From Alphaproteobacteria bacterium (GTDB taxonomy: Bacteria; Pseudomonadota; Alphaproteobacteria; Rs-D84; CACZYB01): a stretch of DNA of 64,000 nucleotides. The stretch spans positions 14,359-78,358 of the forward strand of contig JBJEXC010000001.1 of assembly GCA_051885355.1 (NCBI GenBank), written 5' to 3'. The position numbers and the translations under genes were made by a program. The notes beneath the pieces are model-generated. The model worked only from the letters and a program-made list of their open reading frames with translations. It made no database searches and was not told the DNA's origin. This document shows positions 12,866 through 39,089 of the stretch, piece after piece (the stretch's first letter is position 1; each line of letters starts with the position of its first letter).

Positions 12866-14767
12866 ATGAGTAAATATTGGAAATATATATATGTTTTGTT
12901 TTTTATTTTTTTATTTTTCAATCTTATACTAGAATCTCCAAATGAAAAGGTTGAAAAAAATCAAAATGAAATAAAGTTTTCTGATTTTGTTAATAAAGCA
13001 AAAAAGGGCGAATTAGAATCTATTGTCATAAAGGGCGATATTGTTGAAGGAACCTTAAAATCCCCAACAAAAAACTTAGATGAAAATGGTGAAAAAGTAG
13101 AGCCAGAAAAATTTACATCAAAAGTAATTTTTTACCCTAGACTTCTTGAAATTTTAGAAGAAAAGGAAATCCCAACAGAAATTAAAATTTCAGAAGGTTC
13201 CAGAATAACATTTACAAAAATCATTGATATACTCGTATCTTTGTTATGGATAGTTATGATTATTTTCATTTTCAAAAGTTTGAAAAGTGATAAATTCAGT
13301 ATTGGAAAATCAAATATAAAAATGTTCACATCTGATATGCAAAAGATCAGATTCTCTGATGTGCTTGGGGCTGATGAAGCAAAGCAAGAAGTCGCTGAAA
13401 TTGTTGATTTTCTTTCTGATCCAACAAAATATTCTCGACTTGGTGCAAAAATACCAAAGGGAGTTTTATTAGTTGGTGCTCCTGGAACTGGAAAAACTTT
13501 ACTTGCAAAAGCAATCGCTGGTGAAGCAGGTGTTCCATTTTTTTCCACAAGCGGTTCAGAATTTGTTGAAATGTTTGTTGGTGTTGGTGCCAGCAGAGTA
13601 AGGGCACTTTTTGAACAAGCAAAAAAATCCGCACCTTGTCTTGTTTTCATCGATGAAATTGATGCAGTAGGTCGTCATCGTGGTTCTGGATATGGTGGTG
13701 GAAATGATGAAAGGGAACAAACCCTTAATCAATTGCTTGTCGAAATGGACGGTTTCGAAACAAATGCTGGAATTATTATAATTGCAGCAACAAACCGCGT
13801 CGATGTTTTGGATGATGCTCTTCTTCGTCCAGGAAGATTTGACAGACAAGTTTATATCGATTTGCCTGATTTAAAGGGTCGTGAAGCAATCCTTAAAAAA
13901 TACATAAGTGAGGTTGATATCCTATCTGATGTAGATGTCGCCTCTGTTGCAAGGGGAACCCCAGGGTTTAGTGGCGCGGAACTTGCAAACCTTGTAAATG
14001 AGGCCGCAATTATTGCCGCAAGAAAAAATAAAAAGAAAATATCACAAGATGATTTTGAATATGCAAGGGATAAAATACTTATGGGATTAGAGCATAAATC
14101 AAGAAGTATGTCGCCTGATGAAATTAAAAATACTGCATATCATGAGGCAGGCCATGCACTTTGTTCTGTCCTTCTTCCAGAAGTGGACCCTATACATAAG
14201 GCTACAATAGTGCCTCGTGGACAAGCATTAGGACTTGTGCAACAACTTCCAGAAAGGGACAAAGTAAGTGTAAATATTACAGAAATTCGCTCAAACATTG
14301 CGGTTGCTCTTGCTGGACGAATCAGTGAGGAAACTTTCTTTGGAAAGGATAAAATTACAACTGGAGCATCCTCTGATATACAGGCAGCAACAAAATATGC
14401 AAGAAATTCTGTTGTATTTTGGGGATTATCACCTAAAGTTGGCACAGTTTATTATGGAGAACGAGAAAAATATCCTATTTCCGAAGAAACTTCTCGTGAA
14501 ATTGATTTAGAAGTAAAGCGTATGATTGATGAGGGATATAAACTTGCAAAATCAACTATTTCCAAGCATAAGGCAACTTTGGAAAAATTGGCGCAGGCTT
14601 TGCTTGAATATGAAACCTTGACTGGGGACGAAGTTCGTGCCATAGTAAAGGGTAAAAAAATAAAATTGACTAAGAAGATAGATATTGCTAAAAATAGGAT
14701 AGAAAGAATATCAACCCTTCCTTTGACAACGAAAAAAAAGATTAAACAAGAAGAAAAGAAAAAATAA
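12866..14767 (+). CDS. ftsH: ATP-dependent zinc metalloprotease FtsH
   Basis: N-terminal TM helices. AAA Walker [12 protein letters not shown] region. Zinc-binding HEAGHAL. Confidence 0.95.
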
Positions 14768-25097: not shown

Positions 25098-27224
25098 ATG
25101 AGAACAAGGAATGACATAGAAAAACATAAACACTCACAACCATTTTATCATTTAAAAGGGATAAAGTGTAATCTATTTATACTACTTGCCTATATCATAT
25201 TCTCTGTGCCTAATATCGCCACAGCCAAAAAGGTCAAACCTGCAAGAAAGCAAAATTTAAAACGCCAACAAATAAATTCACTAAAAACAATCCCCCAAAC
25301 CGATATTCCTACTAAAACACAAGATACACTCCCCCTTACAGAAACAGGAAACGACCTCTTACTAAAAATAAAGGAGGCGGAGGAGAAAAAAGAAGAAGAA
25401 AATAAAAAAGAACTTTTGCAAATCCTTAATGACAATATGATGAAAGTAAAGGACTCCTGCCTCGGTATAGAAAAGGATTTAAAGACCATCCAAGTATTAG
25501 CAGGAGTATCCACAGGAGCGAGCGGGTTGGGAACCCTTACCTCTGGCGGAGCATTGGTAAGCGGTATAGTGAAATCGGGAAAGGATAAGAAGATAGAGGA
25601 GAATAAAAAGGAGATACAAAAGAAACAGTTACAAATCAAGGTAATTAACGGAGAAAATAGACTTAATGAGATAGATGCACTTTTTGAAACATCAAAAAAT
25701 AGAAGAAAAAAAGATATAGAAGAATTTGCTCTAAAAAGGCAAGAAGTTATGAAAGAAGTTCCTTTATTGTATAGGAAATATAATGATACATTAAAAGAAT
25801 ATAAATCTTGTAAAGAAGATATTAATAAACAATTAGAAGATAATAACAATAATGAAGAATATAAAAAACTTTTTAATAGAAAAGAACAACTTCAAGAAAT
25901 AGCATATCAAAGATATAAAGAAAAACATTTAGATAATGAAGATCCTTATATAAAGGAAACCCAAATTTATATAGAAGAATTAAGTAAAGAAGAAAAAAAA
26001 GAATGGCAAGATATACAGTCCAAAAAATCTGTATTTGAAAAAGAAATATTTAATAAGAATATGACCTGTGAAACTCTTAAAGATAAAGCAGATGAAATAA
26101 GCAATAAAATGTATAACTTAGATAAAATATATATTGGTGCAGGAAATGGTATTATTCAATCATTTGGAGGAAGAAATTTTTTAAGACATTCTAATAATAC
26201 ATTTGCACAAGGTGTTTCAATGGATGGTAGATCCGATGTCACAAATAACTTATCTTCTGTTCTATATGTAGGGACATTACAGTATTATATGAAAACTCAA
26301 AAACAACTAAATCTTCCTGCTCTTGTAGGAGTTGAAGCTAATGATACAGATAAAATTCTTACAGAAGAGGAGCTTAATTCAATTGCATATCCAGAAGAAA
26401 CTTTTACTGATGTAGATTCTTATATAAATAGATATAAAACAACCCAATATGACGATAATGATAAAGAATATATGATAGAGCAAGCAACAACAGAAGTAGC
26501 ACCAATAGGAGAACTTAAAAAACTTCAAAGTTTGCATTTAGAAAAAACACAGATAGAAAATAATAAACAAGATTTACTTTACAATTATGATAATGCAGAA
26601 ATTTATACCACCCAAGAGGATAAAGACAGGCTTACAAGAGAAATTGGAAAACTTCATCGTGATAACGAAAAACTTAACAATACCTCTAAAACCCTAGGCA
26701 ATGTCAGAACAGGTCTTATGGCGGGAAGTATAGCCACCTCGGCTACCTCTACTATCACCTCCGGTATCAATATCAAAAAACTCGACGACCTCATAGATAA
26801 AATAAAATCCTGTAATGCCTCTATCAACTCCCTTAAAACTAACCTAAATAATGCTATGGCGGAGGGGGCTGATACAGACCTTACCCTTTATAAGAACATA
26901 GCGAATTCTTGTAATGACTTAGACAGTAATAATATAAAAGACATAAAGGGAGTAATGACAGCCTCAACTATTGTAGGTGGTATAGGAACAGCGACAAGTG
27001 TTGCAGGCACTATAACTTCAGCCCTTGCAAACACGGAAAAAGTTCGTAAAGATGACAGTGAGGAAGGGGTAAAGAAGGAGAAGGGATTGAATCTAGCCTC
27101 AAACATAATGGCAGGAGTAACGACAGGGACTAGTGCAGGAGGGATAGTGTTAGGAGCGGTGACACTTAAGAAACTGCAAGACAATGTGGATAGAGCTGAA
27201 AGATGTGAGAAAGTATTGAAATAA
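25098..27224 (+). CDS. Large secreted/surface coiled-coil protein with four glycine-zipper (small-residue) helices
   Basis: Signal peptide (LLAYIIFSVPNIATA). Long K/E-rich coiled-coil. Repeated G/S/T-rich helix motifs (LAGVSTGASGLGTLTSGGALVSGIV; IVGGIGTATSVAGTITSALA; MAGVTTGTSAGGIVLGAV). Confidence 0.6.
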   Translation: MRTRNDIEKHKHSQPFYHLKGIKCNLFILLAYIIFSVPNIATAKKVKPARKQNLKRQQINSLKTIPQTDIPTKTQDTLPLTETGNDLLLKIKEAEEKKEEENKKELLQILNDNMMKVKDSCLGIEKDLKTIQVLAGVSTGASGLGTLTSGGALVSGIVKSGKDKKIEENKKEIQKKQLQIKVINGENRLNEIDALFETSKNRRKKDIEEFALKRQEVMKEVPLLYRKYNDTLKEYKSCKEDINKQLEDNNNNEEYKKLFNRKEQLQEIAYQRYKEKHLDNEDPYIKETQIYIEELSKEEKKEWQDIQSKKSVFEKEIFNKNMTCETLKDKADEISNKMYNLDKIYIGAGNGIIQSFGGRNFLRHSNNTFAQGVSMDGRSDVTNNLSSVLYVGTLQYYMKTQKQLNLPALVGVEANDTDKILTEEELNSIAYPEETFTDVDSYINRYKTTQYDDNDKEYMIEQATTEVAPIGELKKLQSLHLEKTQIENNKQDLLYNYDNAEIYTTQEDKDRLTREIGKLHRDNEKLNNTSKTLGNVRTGLMAGSIATSATSTITSGINIKKLDDLIDKIKSCNASINSLKTNLNNAMAEGADTDLTLYKNIANSCNDLDSNNIKDIKGVMTASTIVGGIGTATSVAGTITSALANTEKVRKDDSEEGVKKEKGLNLASNIMAGVTTGTSAGGIVLGAVTLKKLQDNVDRAERCEKVLK

Positions 27225-27313
27225 AAATTCCTCTTGCACTTTTGGGGGAAAATTGTATAATATTTATCATTAAACTACTTTGATATAAACAAACTAAACG
27301 AAAGGATTATAAA

Positions 27314-28327
27314 ATGGCTGTAAAAGTAGCAATAAATGGTTTTGGTCGTATCGGAAGAATGACTTTCCGTGCATTAATTGAAAGTGGAAGAAATGATGTT
27401 GAAGTTGTGGCTATCAATGATTTGGCAAGCCCTGAATCTTCACTACATCTTTTGAAATATGATACTGTTCATGGAAGACTTCCAGTAGAAGCAAAACTTG
27501 AAAACGGTGTGCTTATCGCTGGAAATCAAAAGGCAAAAATGTTTGCTATCCGTGATCCAAAGGAATATCCATGGAAGGATTTGGATATTGATATAGTTTT
27601 CGAATGCACAGGTATTTTCACAGAACGCGAAAAAGCACAAGTTCATTTGGACGCTGGTGCAAAAAGAGTTCTCGTTTCTGCTCCTGCAAAGGGTGCTGAT
27701 TTAACTGTTGTTTATGGTGTTAACCAAGACAAAATCACAAATGAGATGAGAGTTTTCTCAAACGCATCTTGCACAACAAACTGCTTGGCTCCTGTTGTAG
27801 AAGTATTACACAGAAACTTTGGCATTTCACACGGTTATATGACAACAATTCACTCATATACTGGCGACCAAGTAACACTTGATAGAGATTTAAAGGGCAA
27901 TCTTTACCGCTCTCGTGCTGCTGCACAAAACATTATTCCAACAACAACTGGTGCTGCAAAGGCTATAGGTCTTGTTATCCCAGAATTAGCAGGAAAACTT
28001 GACGGTGCTTCTACTCGTGTTCCAACACCTGATGTTTCACTTGTTGACTTTAAATTTGTTGTTAAAAAAGATGTTACTGCTGAAGAAATCAATAATGCAA
28101 TTATCGAAGCATCAAAGTCAGAAAGATACAAAGGTATCCTTTGCACAAATGATGACGCTTTGGTTTCATCTGATTTCATTCACAACCCTGCATCATCAAC
28201 TTTTGATTTAAAAGAAACAAAAGTTATGGAAGGAAATTTCGTTCGTATCGTTTCATGGTATGATAACGAATGGGGTTTCTCCAACCGTATGCTTGATACA
28301 GCAGTTGCAATTTCAAAAACAATCTAA
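27314..28327 (+). CDS. gap: Glyceraldehyde-3-phosphate dehydrogenase
   Basis: INGFGRIGR NAD-binding motif; ASCTTNCLAP catalytic Cys; 337 aa. Confidence 0.95.
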   Translation: MAVKVAINGFGRIGRMTFRALIESGRNDVEVVAINDLASPESSLHLLKYDTVHGRLPVEAKLENGVLIAGNQKAKMFAIRDPKEYPWKDLDIDIVFECTGIFTEREKAQVHLDAGAKRVLVSAPAKGADLTVVYGVNQDKITNEMRVFSNASCTTNCLAPVVEVLHRNFGISHGYMTTIHSYTGDQVTLDRDLKGNLYRSRAAAQNIIPTTTGAAKAIGLVIPELAGKLDGASTRVPTPDVSLVDFKFVVKKDVTAEEINNAIIEASKSERYKGILCTNDDALVSSDFIHNPASSTFDLKETKVMEGNFVRIVSWYDNEWGFSNRMLDTAVAISKTI

Positions 28328-28351
28328 TTTGTTTGAAATACTTAAACGAAA

Positions 28352-28375
28352 CCCTCCAATCGGAGGGTTTTTATT
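28352..28375 (+). terminator. Rho-independent terminator (CCCTCCAATCGGAGGG + T-run) after gap
   Basis: 6-bp stem, loop AATC, T8. Confidence 0.7.
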
Positions 28376-28458
28376 TTATTAGCAATTTTTATTGACAGTC
28401 TATTTTTTTTGTTTATACTATTTAACAAAAGCAATTAATAAAATGAAAGGTAATTAAA

Positions 28459-28845
28459 ATGTATTCAAATTACAATGAATCTCAAAATTATTATGGACCT
28501 AAAATTTTGACAACACTTGGAGCTTTTTTTCTTTGTGGGCTGTTATTAAGTGTGCCAATAGTAGATTATATTGAAGATAAAAAATACACTGAACTTCCTT
28601 TAACTACCGGAACAGTAGTGGAAAAATCAGTAATAAATAAAACCACCATATTTTCAATAGATACTGATGGTAACAAGGATACTATTGAAAAATTAATCAA
28701 AGTAAGAAACAATAGAGAAAATACTATATATATTATAAATATGAAAGAAGATTCTCAAATCCAATTTGCAGATAACAGTAAAAAAACTAAGTTGGATAAA
28801 TCAAGTATTTATAAAATTGATAATTTTATTGTTAAACAAAGATAA
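28459..28845 (+). CDS. Hypothetical membrane-anchored protein
   Basis: Single N-terminal TM helix. Promoter TTGACA-N16-TATACT at 28394-28421. Bracketed by two near-identical terminator hairpins. Confidence 0.45.
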   Translation: MYSNYNESQNYYGPKILTTLGAFFLCGLLLSVPIVDYIEDKKYTELPLTTGTVVEKSVINKTTIFSIDTDGNKDTIEKLIKVRNNRENTIYIINMKEDSQIQFADNSKKTKLDKSSIYKIDNFIVKQR

Positions 28846-28852
28846 AAAATCC

Positions 28853-28875
28853 CCTCCAATCGGAGGTTTTTTTTT
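28853..28875 (+). terminator. Rho-independent terminator; same CCTCCAATCGGAGG core as 28352-28375
   Basis: CCTCC-AATC-GGAGG plus T9. Confidence 0.7.
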
Positions 28876-28908
28876 AGTTATTTGTAGAAATTTAACGTTT
28901 TTTACTGT

Positions 28909-29183
28909 TTAAGCTATTCTTACAACGTCCGATACAAGAACTATAGTTTCTGCCCCTGTGAAAAGCACATTTTTTTTACAAGTTCCTTCTATATCTTTTA
29001 AAGAAAAAGTAGCAGTTGTAGTATTTTCTTCTGCTAAGACAGGGTTACTGCCAACATAAAGACTTAACATTAAAACTGTTGAAATTACAAATTTAAAAGA
29101 TTTTAAGATAGAAGTTTTGTTATGGAAAGAAGAAATAACTGACTTATTTACCCCCCCCCCATTTGTCTATTTATGTCTAACAT
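28909..29183 (-). pseudogene. Phase-variable small secreted protein gene, currently frameshifted OFF by a G10 tract just after the start codon
   Basis: Minus strand reads ATG TTA GAC ATA AAT AGA CAA ATG GGG GGG GGG TAA (MLDINRQMGGG*). With G11 or G8 the frame continues into a 91-aa ORF carrying a signal-peptide-like segment (ILKSFKFVISTVLMLSLYVGS). RBS AAAGGAAA upstream. Confidence 0.5.
29151..29160. repeat. Homopolymeric C10/G10 tract (only one of its kind in the window)
   Basis: Ten consecutive C in a ~30% GC background; no other G/C homopolymer longer than 5 seen. Confidence 0.95.
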
Positions 29184-29260
29184 ATTGTTTCCTTTCATTT
29201 TGTTGTTAAACTTCTTTTAAAATACCATATTTTAGGATTATATGCAATAATATTTTTCCC

Positions 29261-29288
29261 TTGCATTTTTAAGAGGTTATGTTATACT
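29261..29288 (+). promoter_or_regulatory. Putative sigma70 promoter of rpsU (TTGCAT-N16-TATACT)
   Basis: Sequence match ~70 nt upstream of the rpsU start. Confidence 0.4.
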
Positions 29289-29355
29289 AAACCCCAAGTT
29301 TTTTAGAACTTACCAAACTTCTATAAAAACAAATTCATCAAAAGGGGGTGAAATA

Positions 29356-29562
29356 ATGGTAAAAGTTCTAGTTCGTGATAACAATGTTGAACAAGCACTC
29401 CGTGTTCTTAAAAAGAAAGGACAAAAGGAAGGACTTCTTCGTGAAATAAAGGAAAGAAAGTACTATGAAACTGGTACTGCTATGAAAAAGCGTAAGAAGA
29501 ACGAAGCAGTTCGTCGTGAAAGAAAAAGAATATCAAAGGAAAAACAACTCCTCGGATATTAA
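29356..29562 (+). CDS. rpsU: 30S ribosomal protein S21
   Basis: Typical S21 sequence (VLVRDNNVEQALR...RREKKRISKEK); RBS AAAGGGGGTG. Confidence 0.9.
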   Translation: MVKVLVRDNNVEQALRVLKKKGQKEGLLREIKERKYYETGTAMKKRKKNEAVRRERKRISKEKQLLGY

Positions 29563-29567
29563 AAATA

Positions 29568-29595
29568 AGACCCCAATTACGGGGCTTTTTTTTAT
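29568..29595 (+). terminator. Rho-independent terminator after rpsU
   Basis: GACCCCAATTACGGGGC hairpin then T8. Confidence 0.6.
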
Positions 29596-30158
29596 TTTAT
29601 TGATTTTTTAACTTGCTCATTCACTTTCATAAAATCGTAAACATGCAAAAATCTTACTTCATATGGTTGGCTGTTTCCATTAGTTATTCTTGTTCCACCT
29701 GCCGTAGAAACATCAATGCTTCCCGTTCCAAATATTAAATCCAAAATATTTCTGTGAAGTCTTGTATCTGTGATTTTTACAAATGGCACAAACTTGTATG
29801 ATTTTATAAATACTCCCCTGATTTCAAGGATTCCTTTGTTCGTAATCACATATTTCATACTTTTAAATTTAAGGTATTGATATATAAAACAAATTGTAAA
29901 GATAATAATAGTTATTAGTACCCCAGTTATTATAATTGAAGTATTAAAATGTTTTCTAATAATATATAAATATCCTAAGATAACCCAAATAGACAATCCA
30001 AATGAATATAGCACAGCAAATATCAAAGAAATTTTACTTGGAATTTCCTTCATCAAGGAAACCTTTTCCCCTTTGCTGACATAATTTTTCCAATCGGTAT
30101 TAAATAAGTTCATAATGTCCTCCTTTATTATTATAAGGAGATTATAACATAAAATCAC
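29592..30158 (-). CDS. Membrane protein with bacterial PH (bPH_2 / YdbS-like) domain
   Basis: Two TM helices followed by a bPH_2-like beta-rich domain (VITNKGILEIRGVFIKSYKFVPFVKITD). Confidence 0.5.
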   Translation of the reverse strand: MILCYNLLIIIKEDIMNLFNTDWKNYVSKGEKVSLMKEIPSKISLIFAVLYSFGLSIWVILGYLYIIRKHFNTSIIITGVLITIIIFTICFIYQYLKFKSMKYVITNKGILEIRGVFIKSYKFVPFVKITDTRLHRNILDLIFGTGSIDVSTAGGTRITNGNSQPYEVRFLHVYDFMKVNEQVKKSIK

Positions 30159-37483: not shown

Positions 37484-37936
37484 CTATATTTCTTCAATCT
37501 TTGCAACATAAGAATTTGTAAAACTATGCAAAAGTTCTTTAAGTATAGGATTATTAGAAATTTCTTTAAGTTGTGCTTCAAATATATCGCGTTTTTTCTT
37601 GTAAATAGTATCCTCGCCAACTTCATTCGAATGTTCCACCTTTATATTATACTTCGCATTTGCAAAAAAAGTATTAAGGTTTTTAAGAAGTTCCCTCGGA
37701 TACCCAGTATCAAAATTTATAAATAATACCCCTTTATCAAAGGATACAAAGCGAACATATCTTTCTACATCTTGGGAAAGAAGGTAGTTTTTCTTTTCCT
37801 TTAAAATATCAACAATACTTTCAATGGAAAGAATTGATACATCAGTATTGCTACTTTCTTCTTCCTCAAACAAAGATGAAGAATTTGCTATGCTAGATAT
37901 TTTTTTTTTGAACTTCGGTTGAAGTCTGATTTTCAA
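37484..37936 (-). CDS. dnaX: DnaX C-terminal (tau-specific) segment, in a different frame from the dnaX N-terminal ORF
   Basis: Overlaps the 3' end of the dnaX ORF across an A10 run. Deleting one A fuses the frames seamlessly (…VQKKISSIANSS…). Confidence 0.55.
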   Translation of the reverse strand: MKIRLQPKFKKKISSIANSSSLFEEEESSNTDVSILSIESIVDILKEKKNYLLSQDVERYVRFVSFDKGVLFINFDTGYPRELLKNLNTFFANAKYNIKVEHSNEVGEDTIYKKKRDIFEAQLKEISNNPILKELLHSFTNSYVAKIEEI

Positions 37937-39089
37937 TCTTGTGAAGTATTTCCGCTGGACTTGGCATCATACCCACATAAGAAAGTCTTATAATAATCAT
38001 TTCCACCGCAGAAAGAACATTTGGAACACGGCTTAATTCGTCAAAGCCCTTCAATAACATCTGCCAAATACGGGAAAGAGTTGCAATACTTAAATTATGA
38101 GCCATATTGGAAATTTTTTCTTGTTCCGCCGGTGGCACAGGAACAGAAGCCAAAGAACTTGGTGTTATCTTTACCCTTGTAATATAATGGGTAATTTCCA
38201 ATAAATCAGTCAAAATTAACACTGGGTCCACACCCAAATCATATTGATTATCAATAATTTCAACTGCCTTTTGAATATCAGCCTTAATAATCGCATCATA
38301 TAAATCAAAGACAATCCCCTTTGATGCAAGTCCCAAAATCTTTGAAACTTTATCAACAGTAATATCACCATCACAATTTGAAATTACTTGATCAAGGAAA
38401 CTCATTCCATCACGCACAGACCCGTCCGCAGTCTTCGCAATAATATTTATTGAATCATCATCAATTTTCACATTTTCCAACTCGCAAATGTGTTTGAAAT
38501 GTTTTGACAAAGTTTCCAAATCAACACGCCTTAAATCAAATCTTTGACAACGAGATAAAACAGTAGGTGGCACCTTCCTTATTTCCGTAGTCGCAAAAAT
38601 AAATATTACATAAGGAGGAGGCTCTTCTAAAGTTTTAAGAAGTGCATTGAAAGCATTCTTTGAAAGCATATGAACTTCGTCAATTATATAAACTTTATAT
38701 CTTGCAGATGATGGCTTATATTGAACTCCGTCAATAATTTCCCTTATATCATCAACACCAGTATTTGAAGCCGCGTCCATTTCAATAACATCAATGTGCC
38801 TGTCTTCTGCAATTGCACGACAATTTTCACATACACCGCAAGGTTTCACTTGTGGACCAGTTGCCTTTCCGTCAGCACCAAGACAATTTAATGATTTTGC
38901 AAAGATTCGGGCAGTAGAAGTCTTTCCAACCCCACGAATTCCAGTAAATATATAAGCATGAGCAAGTCTGTTAGTATTTATTGCATTAGTAAGAGTTTTT
39001 ACTAAAACTTCTTGTCCTATAAGTTCATCAAAAGTGCTAGACCTATATTTCCTAGCCAATACCTTATATTTTACTTCTTCGTTTGCCAT
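37893..39089 (-). CDS. dnaX: DNA polymerase III subunit gamma/tau, N-terminal 398 aa (domains I-III)
   Basis: Walker A GIRGVGKTSTARIFAK; zinc module C..C..C; SRC motif; ends VQKKNI* inside the A10 tract. Confidence 0.9.
   Translation of the reverse strand: MANEEVKYKVLARKYRSSTFDELIGQEVLVKTLTNAINTNRLAHAYIFTGIRGVGKTSTARIFAKSLNCLGADGKATGPQVKPCGVCENCRAIAEDRHIDVIEMDAASNTGVDDIREIIDGVQYKPSSARYKVYIIDEVHMLSKNAFNALLKTLEEPPPYVIFIFATTEIRKVPPTVLSRCQRFDLRRVDLETLSKHFKHICELENVKIDDDSINIIAKTADGSVRDGMSFLDQVISNCDGDITVDKVSKILGLASKGIVFDLYDAIIKADIQKAVEIIDNQYDLGVDPVLILTDLLEITHYITRVKITPSSLASVPVPPAEQEKISNMAHNLSIATLSRIWQMLLKGFDELSRVPNVLSAVEMIIIRLSYVGMMPSPAEILHKIENQTSTEVQKKNI

Follow-up and report, generated by a model that had tools for sequence, protein, structure and literature searches.

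The poly-G tract and its reading frames

We analysed a stretch of 64,000 nucleotides (the window; 31.5% G+C) that is part of a 79-kb contig of a gut metagenome-assembled genome (MAG) named 'Alphaproteobacteria bacterium' (locus tags ACI4N3_), and focused on a homopolymeric tract within a short open reading frame (ORF) that diverges from the ribosomal protein gene rpsU. The tract reads C10 on the plus strand (CCCCCCCCCC, 29151–29160) and G10 on the minus strand, which carries the ORF, at a distance of 196 bp from the rpsU start (29356). It is the sole G/C run longer than 6 nt in the window. Shorter runs comprise C5 (n = 16), C6 (n = 1), G5 (n = 9), and G6 (n = 1), lengths of 7–9 are absent, and a Bernoulli model predicts 0.001 and a first-order Markov model 0.02 runs of at least 10 for the window. 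The Logan assembly of SRR30616848 (contig SRR30616848_553589, here L001) likewise has G10 at this site, but probably derives from the same reads as the MAG and is thus a test of the assembler and not of the population.

Read on the minus strand from 29183, the sequence ATG TTA GAC ATA AAT AGA CAA ATG GGG GGG GGG TAA encodes MLDINRQMGGG followed by a stop (29148–29183), and the first G of the tract is the third base of the second, in-frame ATG. This 11-aa peptide is the product of the sequence as written, hereafter the OFF phase. A continuation of 79 codons plus stop (NKSVISSFHNKTSILKSFKFVISTVLMLSLYVGSNPVLA/EENTTTATFSLKDIEGTCKKNVLFTGAETIVLVSDVVRIA, 28909–29150) is reached only at tract lengths of G8 or G11, hereafter ON, which give products of 90 and 91 aa, respectively, that both end at the stop at 28909–28911. 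Lengths of G7, G9, G10, G12, and G13 lead to a stop 0–2 codons past the run and to products of 10–13 aa. The motif TAAATAA directly behind the tract (29144–29150) stops both OFF frames, as TAA at G10 and as GGT AAA TAA at G9, and reads Val-Asn in the ON frame. As at contingency loci, the homopolymer is uninterrupted and, at ten G, above the slippage length of about 7–8 G/C, and changes in its length toggle the ORF between a full-length and a truncated form.

An original prediction, made from the window sequence, had described the C10/G10 tract and the ORF MLDINRQMGGG-stop, the opening of a 91-aa frame at G11 or G8, the lack of other long G/C homopolymers, and a spacing of about 200 bp between tract and rpsU. 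Direct reading of the window letters bears out each of these points, with the refinement that G8 gives 90 aa. Two of its descriptions need qualification. The tract was said to lie directly after an ATG preceded by a ribosome-binding site (RBS); it lies seven codons past that ATG and directly behind the second in-frame ATG. It was also called unique, which is correct within the window, but relatives carry many such tracts.

The tract is embedded in a series of elements on the minus strand. A putative promoter (29219–29247) consists of the -35 hexamer TTGCAT (29242–29247), the box ATATAATCCTAAAATATGGTATT (29221–29243), and an extended -10 element TGG+TATTTT (29219–29227). We infer this assignment from sequence conservation and the TGn extended -10; a simple sigma-70 scan of the region did not flag the promoter because its -35 hexamer matches at only 3/6 positions. 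The box is present once in the window (0 copies expected). The RBS AAAGGAAAC (29187–29195) is located 3 nt ahead of the ATG. Downstream of the tract, a signal-peptide-like segment (29032–29118) has the n-region KTSILKSFK, the h-region FVISTVLMLSLYV, and the c-region GSNPVLA, with V at -3 and A at -1; its Kyte-Doolittle hydropathy peaks at 2.05 at residues 34–44, and a V-L-A/E cleavage motif can be read from the sequence. No ATG, GTG, or TTG is present between the tract and the h-region, and the signal peptide is therefore translatable through the tract only. The only PGAP call at the site is an ORF of 53 aa from an internal ATG (ACI4N3_00205, 28909–29070).

The tract ORF and a convergent plus-strand gene for a 128-aa protein (28459–28845) are parted by a bidirectional intrinsic terminator that is common to both (CCTCCAATCGGAGG, 28853–28866; no strand assigned), with the A-rich flank AAAAT on one side and T9 on the other. 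Terminator-like sites are enriched in the region (4 found on both strands versus 0.3 expected). A scan of 28300–29700 against Rfam 15 returned no family, with best scores of 17–24 bits against gathering thresholds of 42–114 and matches located at the terminators.

A cassette family in related genomes

Contigs of related MAGs were reached via homologues of the 128-aa protein, and a cassette was defined from five of them (L010, L014, L015, L016, and L017). G/C tracts of at least 8 nt were found five times in L014 (22 kb), three times in L015 (16 kb), and twice each in L010 (10 kb) and L008 (4.8 kb), compared with 0.005–0.018 expected. Runs located ahead of long ORFs follow a common plan, in which a promoter box (-35 plus TGn extended -10) is followed by AAAGGAG, an ATG with a seven-codon leader, G9–10, TAA, and a hydrophobic segment. 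The family box TTG(C/T)AT-ATAATCC(T/A)AAAATATGG-TATTAT is near-invariant. The signal-peptide-like hydrophobic segment after each tract is in frame at one length class only. G(n)TAA was invariant at 13/13 examined tracts of at least 8 nt, and all type-1 cassettes have TAAATA(A/G). The promoter box was not found in viral contigs that were scanned for it.

The window copy shares this plan. Its sequence at 29219–29247 conforms to TTG(C/T)AT-ATAATCC(T/A)AAAATATGG-TATT(A/T)T, and the same or a nearly identical box is present in six other cassettes (L010 938–956, the rpsU sites of L014 and L015, and the L014 cassettes of a 393-aa protein, of position 13336, and of an ankyrin-repeat (Ank) protein). 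The RBS aligns with AAAGGAAAT / AAAAGGAG of other cassettes and is followed by a seven-codon leader and the ATG (ATG or GTG in the family) that provides the first G of the run. G10-TAAATAAG then leads into a hydrophobic segment that is open at one length class. The window cassette is ON at n = 2 mod 3, as are the type-1 cassettes, which have a signal-peptide-like segment at the matching position (KKISILCLILFCVSDLVLA/KN), and its post-tract residues VNKSVISS compare with VNSSINSK, VNNPVNSK, and VNSSVKSI in relatives. The leader, ATGTTAGACATAAAT(A/G)GACAAATG, is of the type found at L014 13336 (MLDINRQM in the window; 93% identity over 30 nt); past the run, identity to that copy is 33%, and L014 13336 has no ORF. 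The window cassette is thus a mosaic of an orthologous promoter, a type-2 leader, a type-1-like signal-peptide start, and an orphan tail. A conserved stalling or regulatory leader peptide was considered and rejected, as the leaders MIKKHPM, MIQKSPM, MLDINRQM, and MINRNIKFVT are wholly unlike across cassette types.

Four kinds of cargo are headed by cassettes in the relatives. Proteins of the 700-aa family (701 aa in L010, 700/632 aa in L014/L015; also in L016 and L017) are ON at G8/G11 and were found at G9 or G10, i.e. OFF. A 393-aa protein (L014–L017) is likewise ON at G8/G11 and was found OFF at G9, and a 331-aa protein (L014, L015) is ON at G7/G10 and was found OFF at G9. Only the 295-aa Ank protein of L014, ON at G9, was found ON (G9). 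From strain to strain, these ORFs of 295–701 aa remain intact when read in the ON frame. In addition to the 53-aa internal fragment called in the window, 5'-truncated proteins of 639/664 aa are called in relatives.

The window copy corresponds in position to the rpsU-adjacent cassette of the relatives, given that window positions 29144–29596 align to L014 9852–9407 with 87% identity along 461 nt, a span that reaches from rpsU across the promoters and the tract, and that the neighbours LpxK, SufE, M23 peptidase, and rpsU are the same in L014–L017. In L014–L017, this cassette heads the protein of about 700 aa. The window encodes a homologue elsewhere, a 708-aa signal-peptide protein (ACI4N3_00190, P0008; 25098–27224, plus strand) with its own tract-less 5' end: in a tblastn search with the L010 ON-phase protein, this ORF was matched with 51% identity over residues 25–701, and by blastn window positions 25224–27227 match L014 9932–11923. 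The 708-aa gene lies beyond gap, is inverted, and adjoins a GT2 glycosyltransferase gene; its promoter region resembles that upstream of the L014 Ank cassette. The protein has no sequence match in Pfam, NCBIfam, or the PDB, and the AlphaFold model of a protein of its family is all-helical with low confidence (pLDDT 57, pTM 0.38).

Tract lengths differ between strains at orthologous sites. The rpsU-site tract is G10 in the window, L014, L016, and L017 and G9 in L015 and L010, and the pair L014 (G10) and L015 (G9) is 98.2% identical over 10.3 kb. Two hairpin elements with a G run in the loop also vary, one from G8 in L008 to G9 in L019 with near-identical flanks and the other from G8 in L008 to G10 in L010. 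All tracts before intact ORFs are uninterrupted, whereas the empty cassette copy without ORF has decayed to G5-T-G5 in L015. In the original prediction, uniform tract length combined with an unconserved downstream frame in relatives was to speak against a switch; tract length was found to differ between relatives, and the last 41 codons of the window frame (the tail) have no homologue there.

The hairpin elements are non-coding, sit just 3' of the big gene, and occur at L010 3160–3192, L008 3510–3550 and 3660–3692, and L019 920–955. One example reads GTCCATCCCC-ATA-G10-TAA-GGGGGATGGAC; one copy is absent in L019. At L014 13250–13420 and L015 14150–14420, two leaders face each other across one tract with no cargo on either side, the promoter, MLDINGQM, and G9 being on one strand and an RBS, MKNNCNNLQSIQSELSILL, and C9 on the other.

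A proposed phase switch and its alternatives

On the basis of these comparisons, G10 is probably the switch element of a poly-G cassette that is common to a clade of low-GC, uncultured gut Alphaproteobacteria, and would act as a slipped-strand translational phase switch that is now OFF. The conserved extended -10 promoter would transcribe the locus, and translation would begin at the ATG at 29183, behind the RBS, with seven codons read on the way into the G run. The G count would then set the frame. At G10, translation would end in an 11-aa peptide at the abutting TAA and at G9 it would stop two codons later, while at G8 or G11 ribosomes would read on through a putative Sec-type signal peptide into the cargo, which would presumably be secreted. 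Replication slippage on the homopolymer would change its length heritably and reversibly and may thereby maintain a mixed population of ON and OFF cells; the G10 of the window would be one insertion and the G9 of relatives one deletion away from ON. The sequences show the tract, its frames, the conservation and orthology of the cassette, the length differences between strains, and the coding-like cargo; for the window copy, we infer promoter activity, slipped-strand switching in the population, and secretion, as well as any function that the 41-aa tail may have. The original prediction of a slipped-strand ON/OFF switch has thus gained from the comparison, by the shared module before long signal-peptide ORFs and the length differences between strains, and is not proven for the window copy.

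Several observations weigh against this proposal. L014, L016, and L017 (99.8–99.9% identical, three assembly records) have the same lengths (G10/G9/G9) at three tracts, and switching is hence not fast enough to alter every consensus. Eight of nine cassette–ORF pairs are OFF in the consensus, which does not depart significantly from a one-third ON share (P = 0.14), and none of the seven assemblies that encode the big protein has it in the ON phase. This mostly-OFF pattern also fits expression by slippage at the RNA level or on the ribosome. The alignment of the window with the rpsU-site cassette of L014 ends 7 nt past the run, and no homologue of the tail was found among 5.8 billion proteins, among 1.84 billion representatives searched in full with HMMER, in JGI metagenomes, or at any related locus. 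Finally, off-by-one counts at long runs are possible, because another homopolymer of the window, the A10 of dnaX, leaves an important domain out of frame.

The dnaX gene (37484–39089, minus strand) is split at this A10 (37900–37909), which is the only other homopolymer of at least 10 nt inside a gene of the window. The 0 frame encodes a 398-aa gamma-like product (pol III domains I–III) with a stop two codons past A10, while reading into the C-terminal domain of tau (DUF3646) takes A9 or A12, which would yield 534/535 aa. The A10 is either a Thermus-like slippage site, at which tau needs a slip, or an off-by-one assembly error.

The alternative with some, if limited, probability is that a genuine cassette has lost its cargo of about 700 aa by rearrangement, that the leftover 5' fragment is still open by chance, and that tract changes are without phenotypic consequence at a locus heading to decay. 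The end of homology 7 nt past the tract and the big-protein homologue at 25098–27224 with its own tract-less start are in line with such a loss, as is the tail without a homologue anywhere searched. Cargo-less cassettes do exist, at L014 13336 with an MLDIN(G/R)QM leader and no ORF and in its L015 orthologue with the interrupted tract, and the region is prone to rearrangement, with a 4.9-kb inversion between L014 and L015 and gap flipped relative to rpsU when compared with L002–L006. A chance remnant is harder to reconcile with the frame itself, which stays open for 79 codons past the run, a length over which only 0.14% of composition-matched shuffles are free of stops (p ~0.0014), and is followed 43 nt later by a proper terminator. 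Codon-usage log-odds are +0.26 bit/codon for the 79-codon frame and a gene-like +0.44 bit/codon for the 41-codon tail, real genes scoring +0.38 ± 0.12 when read in frame and -0.86/-1.15 when read off frame, and the third-position G+C content (GC3) of the cargo is low (0.165), as in window genes (0.215). The signal peptide is complete with its V-x-A cleavage motif, and the window tract is uninterrupted, unlike that of the decayed empty copy. With the orthologous cassette driving a protein of about 700 aa in relatives and an orphan 41-aa tail in the window, the 'small secreted-protein gene' of the original prediction may be a stump and not a gene in its own right. The cargo is coding-like and unsupported by conservation; it could be a small secreted peptide with a function or a stump of recent origin.

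It is unlikely that the frame is instead corrected by -1/+1 slippage of RNA polymerase or the ribosome, with the run as a programmed recoding site and a constant low level of full-length product. In transcriptional slippage of the Thermus thermophilus dnaX type, A-runs of fixed genomic length give two products per gene, and the cassettes share with it the long homopolymer, immediate stops in the alternative frames, and products that would depend on the run length in RNA. That nearly all cassettes are OFF, with three near-identical strains keeping the same OFF lengths, and that stops directly follow the run in both alternative frames would suit this explanation, as would the dnaX A10 of the window, by which the lineage may rely on slippage; as read from the sequence, a -1 shift at G10 or a +1 shift at G9 would also re-pair the Gly-tRNA perfectly into the ON frame. 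What weakens it is that orthologous sites are in two OFF frames (G9 and G10), so that no single programmed shift fits all, and that one paralogue, the Ank cassette, is ON in the DNA. A fixed run length with the same required shift across relatives was thus not found, and length polymorphism is seen directly in DNA. Unlike those of Thermus dnaX, the runs here vary from strain to strain, and the shorter reading yields a peptide of 11 aa. G:C hybrids are, moreover, less prone to transcriptional slippage than A:U hybrids.

A miscount, with a true length of G11 (or G8) and a gene that is simply ON, is very unlikely. Long homopolymers are error-prone, the dnaX A10 also gives an unexpected frame, and the window sequence is present in one sample only; however, two assemblers concur on G10, independent assemblies of relatives give G10 or G9 at the orthologous site, and the locus would still be a poly-G switch if the count were off by one. 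The window has 27 A/T runs of at least 8 nt, 18 of them inside ORFs, and only the dnaX A10 lies at an ORF junction, which indicates that the assembly is not generally ridden with indels. We also rejected a poly-G sequencing artefact: unique sequence flanks this internal run on either side, and independent assemblies of relatives show such runs again at orthologous sites. The side suggestion of the original prediction, that tract length might tune the divergent rpsU promoter, is hardly credible. It has in its favour proximity alone, the -35 hexamers of the two promoters being 13 bp apart, whereas the tract lies about 100 bp past the rpsU -35 within the oppositely directed transcript, and the rpsU -35/-10 elements are conserved in human-gut relatives with an identical S21 protein and no cassette.

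Possible cargo exchange, comparable systems, and genomic surroundings

In three independent comparisons between cassette copies, homology is lost at the run or no more than about 25 nt away from it. Identity drops from 93% upstream to 33% downstream between the window and L014 13336; the downstream part is common and the upstream part unrelated between L014 13336 and L010 3171 / L008 3674; and the window and the L014 rpsU site cease to be homologous 7 nt past the run. Proteins headed by one cassette module share no detectable similarity. A speculative and rather improbable extension of the switch is that G(n)TAA is in addition a preferred crossover junction, at which promoter–leader modules and gene bodies would be exchanged. 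If so, one element would combine slipped-strand switching with expression-site shuffling, through short-homology or site-specific recombination.

A rearrangement was also observed between L014 and L015, which are 98% identical elsewhere: a 4.9-kb segment (L014 11492–16430, L015 11207–16123) is inverted and contains the 3' end of the big gene, the 393-aa cassette gene, gap, genes for proteins of 119 and 124 aa, and the 3' part of a 377-aa gene. Each end of the inversion falls within a 3' region, inverted and 76% identical to its counterpart, of one of two paralogous surface-protein genes, whose C-terminal parts are thereby swapped. The 708-aa protein of the window belongs to a small lineage-restricted family (P0006–P0009) with conserved Gly/Ser/Thr-rich hydrophobic helices and a common C-terminal domain; the 377-aa and 331-aa proteins of L014 have this domain as well. 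The orientation of gap relative to rpsU in the window is opposite to that in the human-gut relatives L002–L006. A 14-nt core, CCTCCAATCGGAGG, is common to the gap terminator (28348–28371) and the terminator at 28853–28866; this sharing may go back to the duplication or rearrangement by which the 1-kb insert separating gap from rpsU arose.

Searches with the cargo itself returned little. The 91-aa ON product, compared with 5.8 billion proteins, matched only its own 53-aa fragment and no Pfam or NCBIfam family, and exact-pattern and back-translated scans of JGI metagenome contigs gave no match. A HMMER search with the 79-aa post-tract frame among 1.84 billion representatives returned itself and P0005, a 679-aa protein of Ank-like repeats (E = 6e-17, 8 stretches). 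P0005 was rejected as a homologue of the tail, since a match of 22–34 residues and 23–30 bits is repeated on 8 near-identical repeats and a single repeat copy would be non-significant in that library. The cassette-driven Ank protein of L014 has no similarity to the tail. P0005 (L013 5001–7040, on a 983-kb contig) consists of double Ank-like repeats of about 69 residues, adjoins an Ank-kinase-RNase L-like gene, and is probably unrelated.

Surface-protein families with a shared repeat-bearing 5' module, independent switching, and divergent bodies include Neisseria opa, Helicobacter pylori oipA/hopZ, and Mycoplasma hyorhinis vlp, with the repeat in the signal-peptide-coding region of opa and oipA and in the promoter of vlp. 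Their repeat units are CTCTT, CT, and poly-A, compared with poly-G here, and their proteins are paralogous, whereas the helical proteins of about 700 aa, the 393-aa protein, the Ank-repeat protein, and the 41-aa tail are mutually dissimilar. The CTCTT repeats of Neisseria opa are mentioned in a passage of PMC5354566, which also refers to a homo-G tract in the signal-peptide-coding region of Neisseria gonorrhoeae pilC (citing Jonsson et al. 1991). Like pilC, in which frameshifts arise by RecA-independent slipped-strand mispairing, the cassettes have a G run in the 5' region encoding an export signal, where frameshifts would switch a secreted or surface protein. They differ from pilC in that there is no sequence homology, the window run precedes the hydrophobic core after a seven-codon leader, and one promoter–leader–tract module is common to unrelated cargo genes; switching here is predicted from sequence.

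Campylobacter jejuni and Helicobacter are likewise low-GC genomes in which G/C runs of 8–11 are far over-represented and concentrated in surface-structure genes, and the typical range of G8–G11 spans ON and OFF, but in Campylobacter the tracts are at varied positions in unrelated genes and lack a shared promoter–leader cassette. Poly(G-C)-tract proteins of Ehrlichia were reportedly described by Mavromatis et al. in 2006. Ehrlichia canis and E. chaffeensis resemble the present case in having a low-GC genome and a paralogous family with poly(G-C) tracts for which phase variation has only been proposed, and differ in being obligate intracellular Rickettsiales. These proteins are an alphaproteobacterial precedent (PMC4885862). 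A literature search returned no paper on poly-G tracts in this gut alphaproteobacterial lineage. No homology between the locus and any of these systems was found. The kind of mechanism is already known, and what might go beyond it is confined to the modular make-up of the cassette and the loss of homology at the run.

Poly-G contingency loci are known mainly from cultured pathogens (Neisseria, Haemophilus, Campylobacter, Helicobacter), and the locus points to a gut clade known only from MAGs with dense poly-G switches, up to five tracts of at least G9 being present within 22 kb of one relative. If the proposed switch is real, commensals would vary their surface or secreted repertoire stochastically, like mucosal pathogens, metagenomics would gain a marker (box plus G(n)TAA) for such genes, and gene callers would be mis-annotating poly-G cassette genes systematically. 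The window copy itself carries modest biological weight, given that its cargo amounts to an orphan peptide of 41 aa, possibly a remnant.

On the contig, lexA, recA, the GT2 glycosyltransferase gene, the 708-aa protein gene, gap (encoding GAPDH; 27314–28327), and the gene for the 128-aa membrane-anchored orphan (28459–28845) follow each other on the plus strand. They are followed by the tract ORF (minus), rpsU (29356–29562, plus), genes for a bPH_2 protein, an M23 peptidase, and SufE (minus), and the LpxK gene (plus). The putative rpsU promoter (TTGCAT, 16 nt, TATACT; 29261–29288, plus strand) is outside the proposed switch and stands back to back with the cassette promoter. In the human-gut MAGs L002–L006 (e.g. 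GCA_934246605.1), gap and rpsU are directly divergent with a spacer of about 290 bp that has neither the 128-aa gene nor a tract ORF, and the rpsU -35/-10 elements are kept (L003 2890–2940). No G/C run of at least 7 nt was present in 6 kb around rpsU of L002–L006, which limits the poly-G module to a sub-clade.

The 128-aa protein, which is N-terminally anchored, belongs to a small orphan family with members in L008, L009, L010, L012, L014, and L015 and an invariant core, PLTTGTVVEK...FSIDTDGNKDTIEK; in relatives, paralogues lie on both sides of gap. Exact copies of the 128-aa or the 53-aa protein were found nowhere outside one Logan contig. Position 1 of L001 corresponds to window position 29244, i.e. 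this contig stops exactly at the start of the promoter box. As de Bruijn assemblers break at repeats, this end is a hint of further cassette copies in the genome outside the window.

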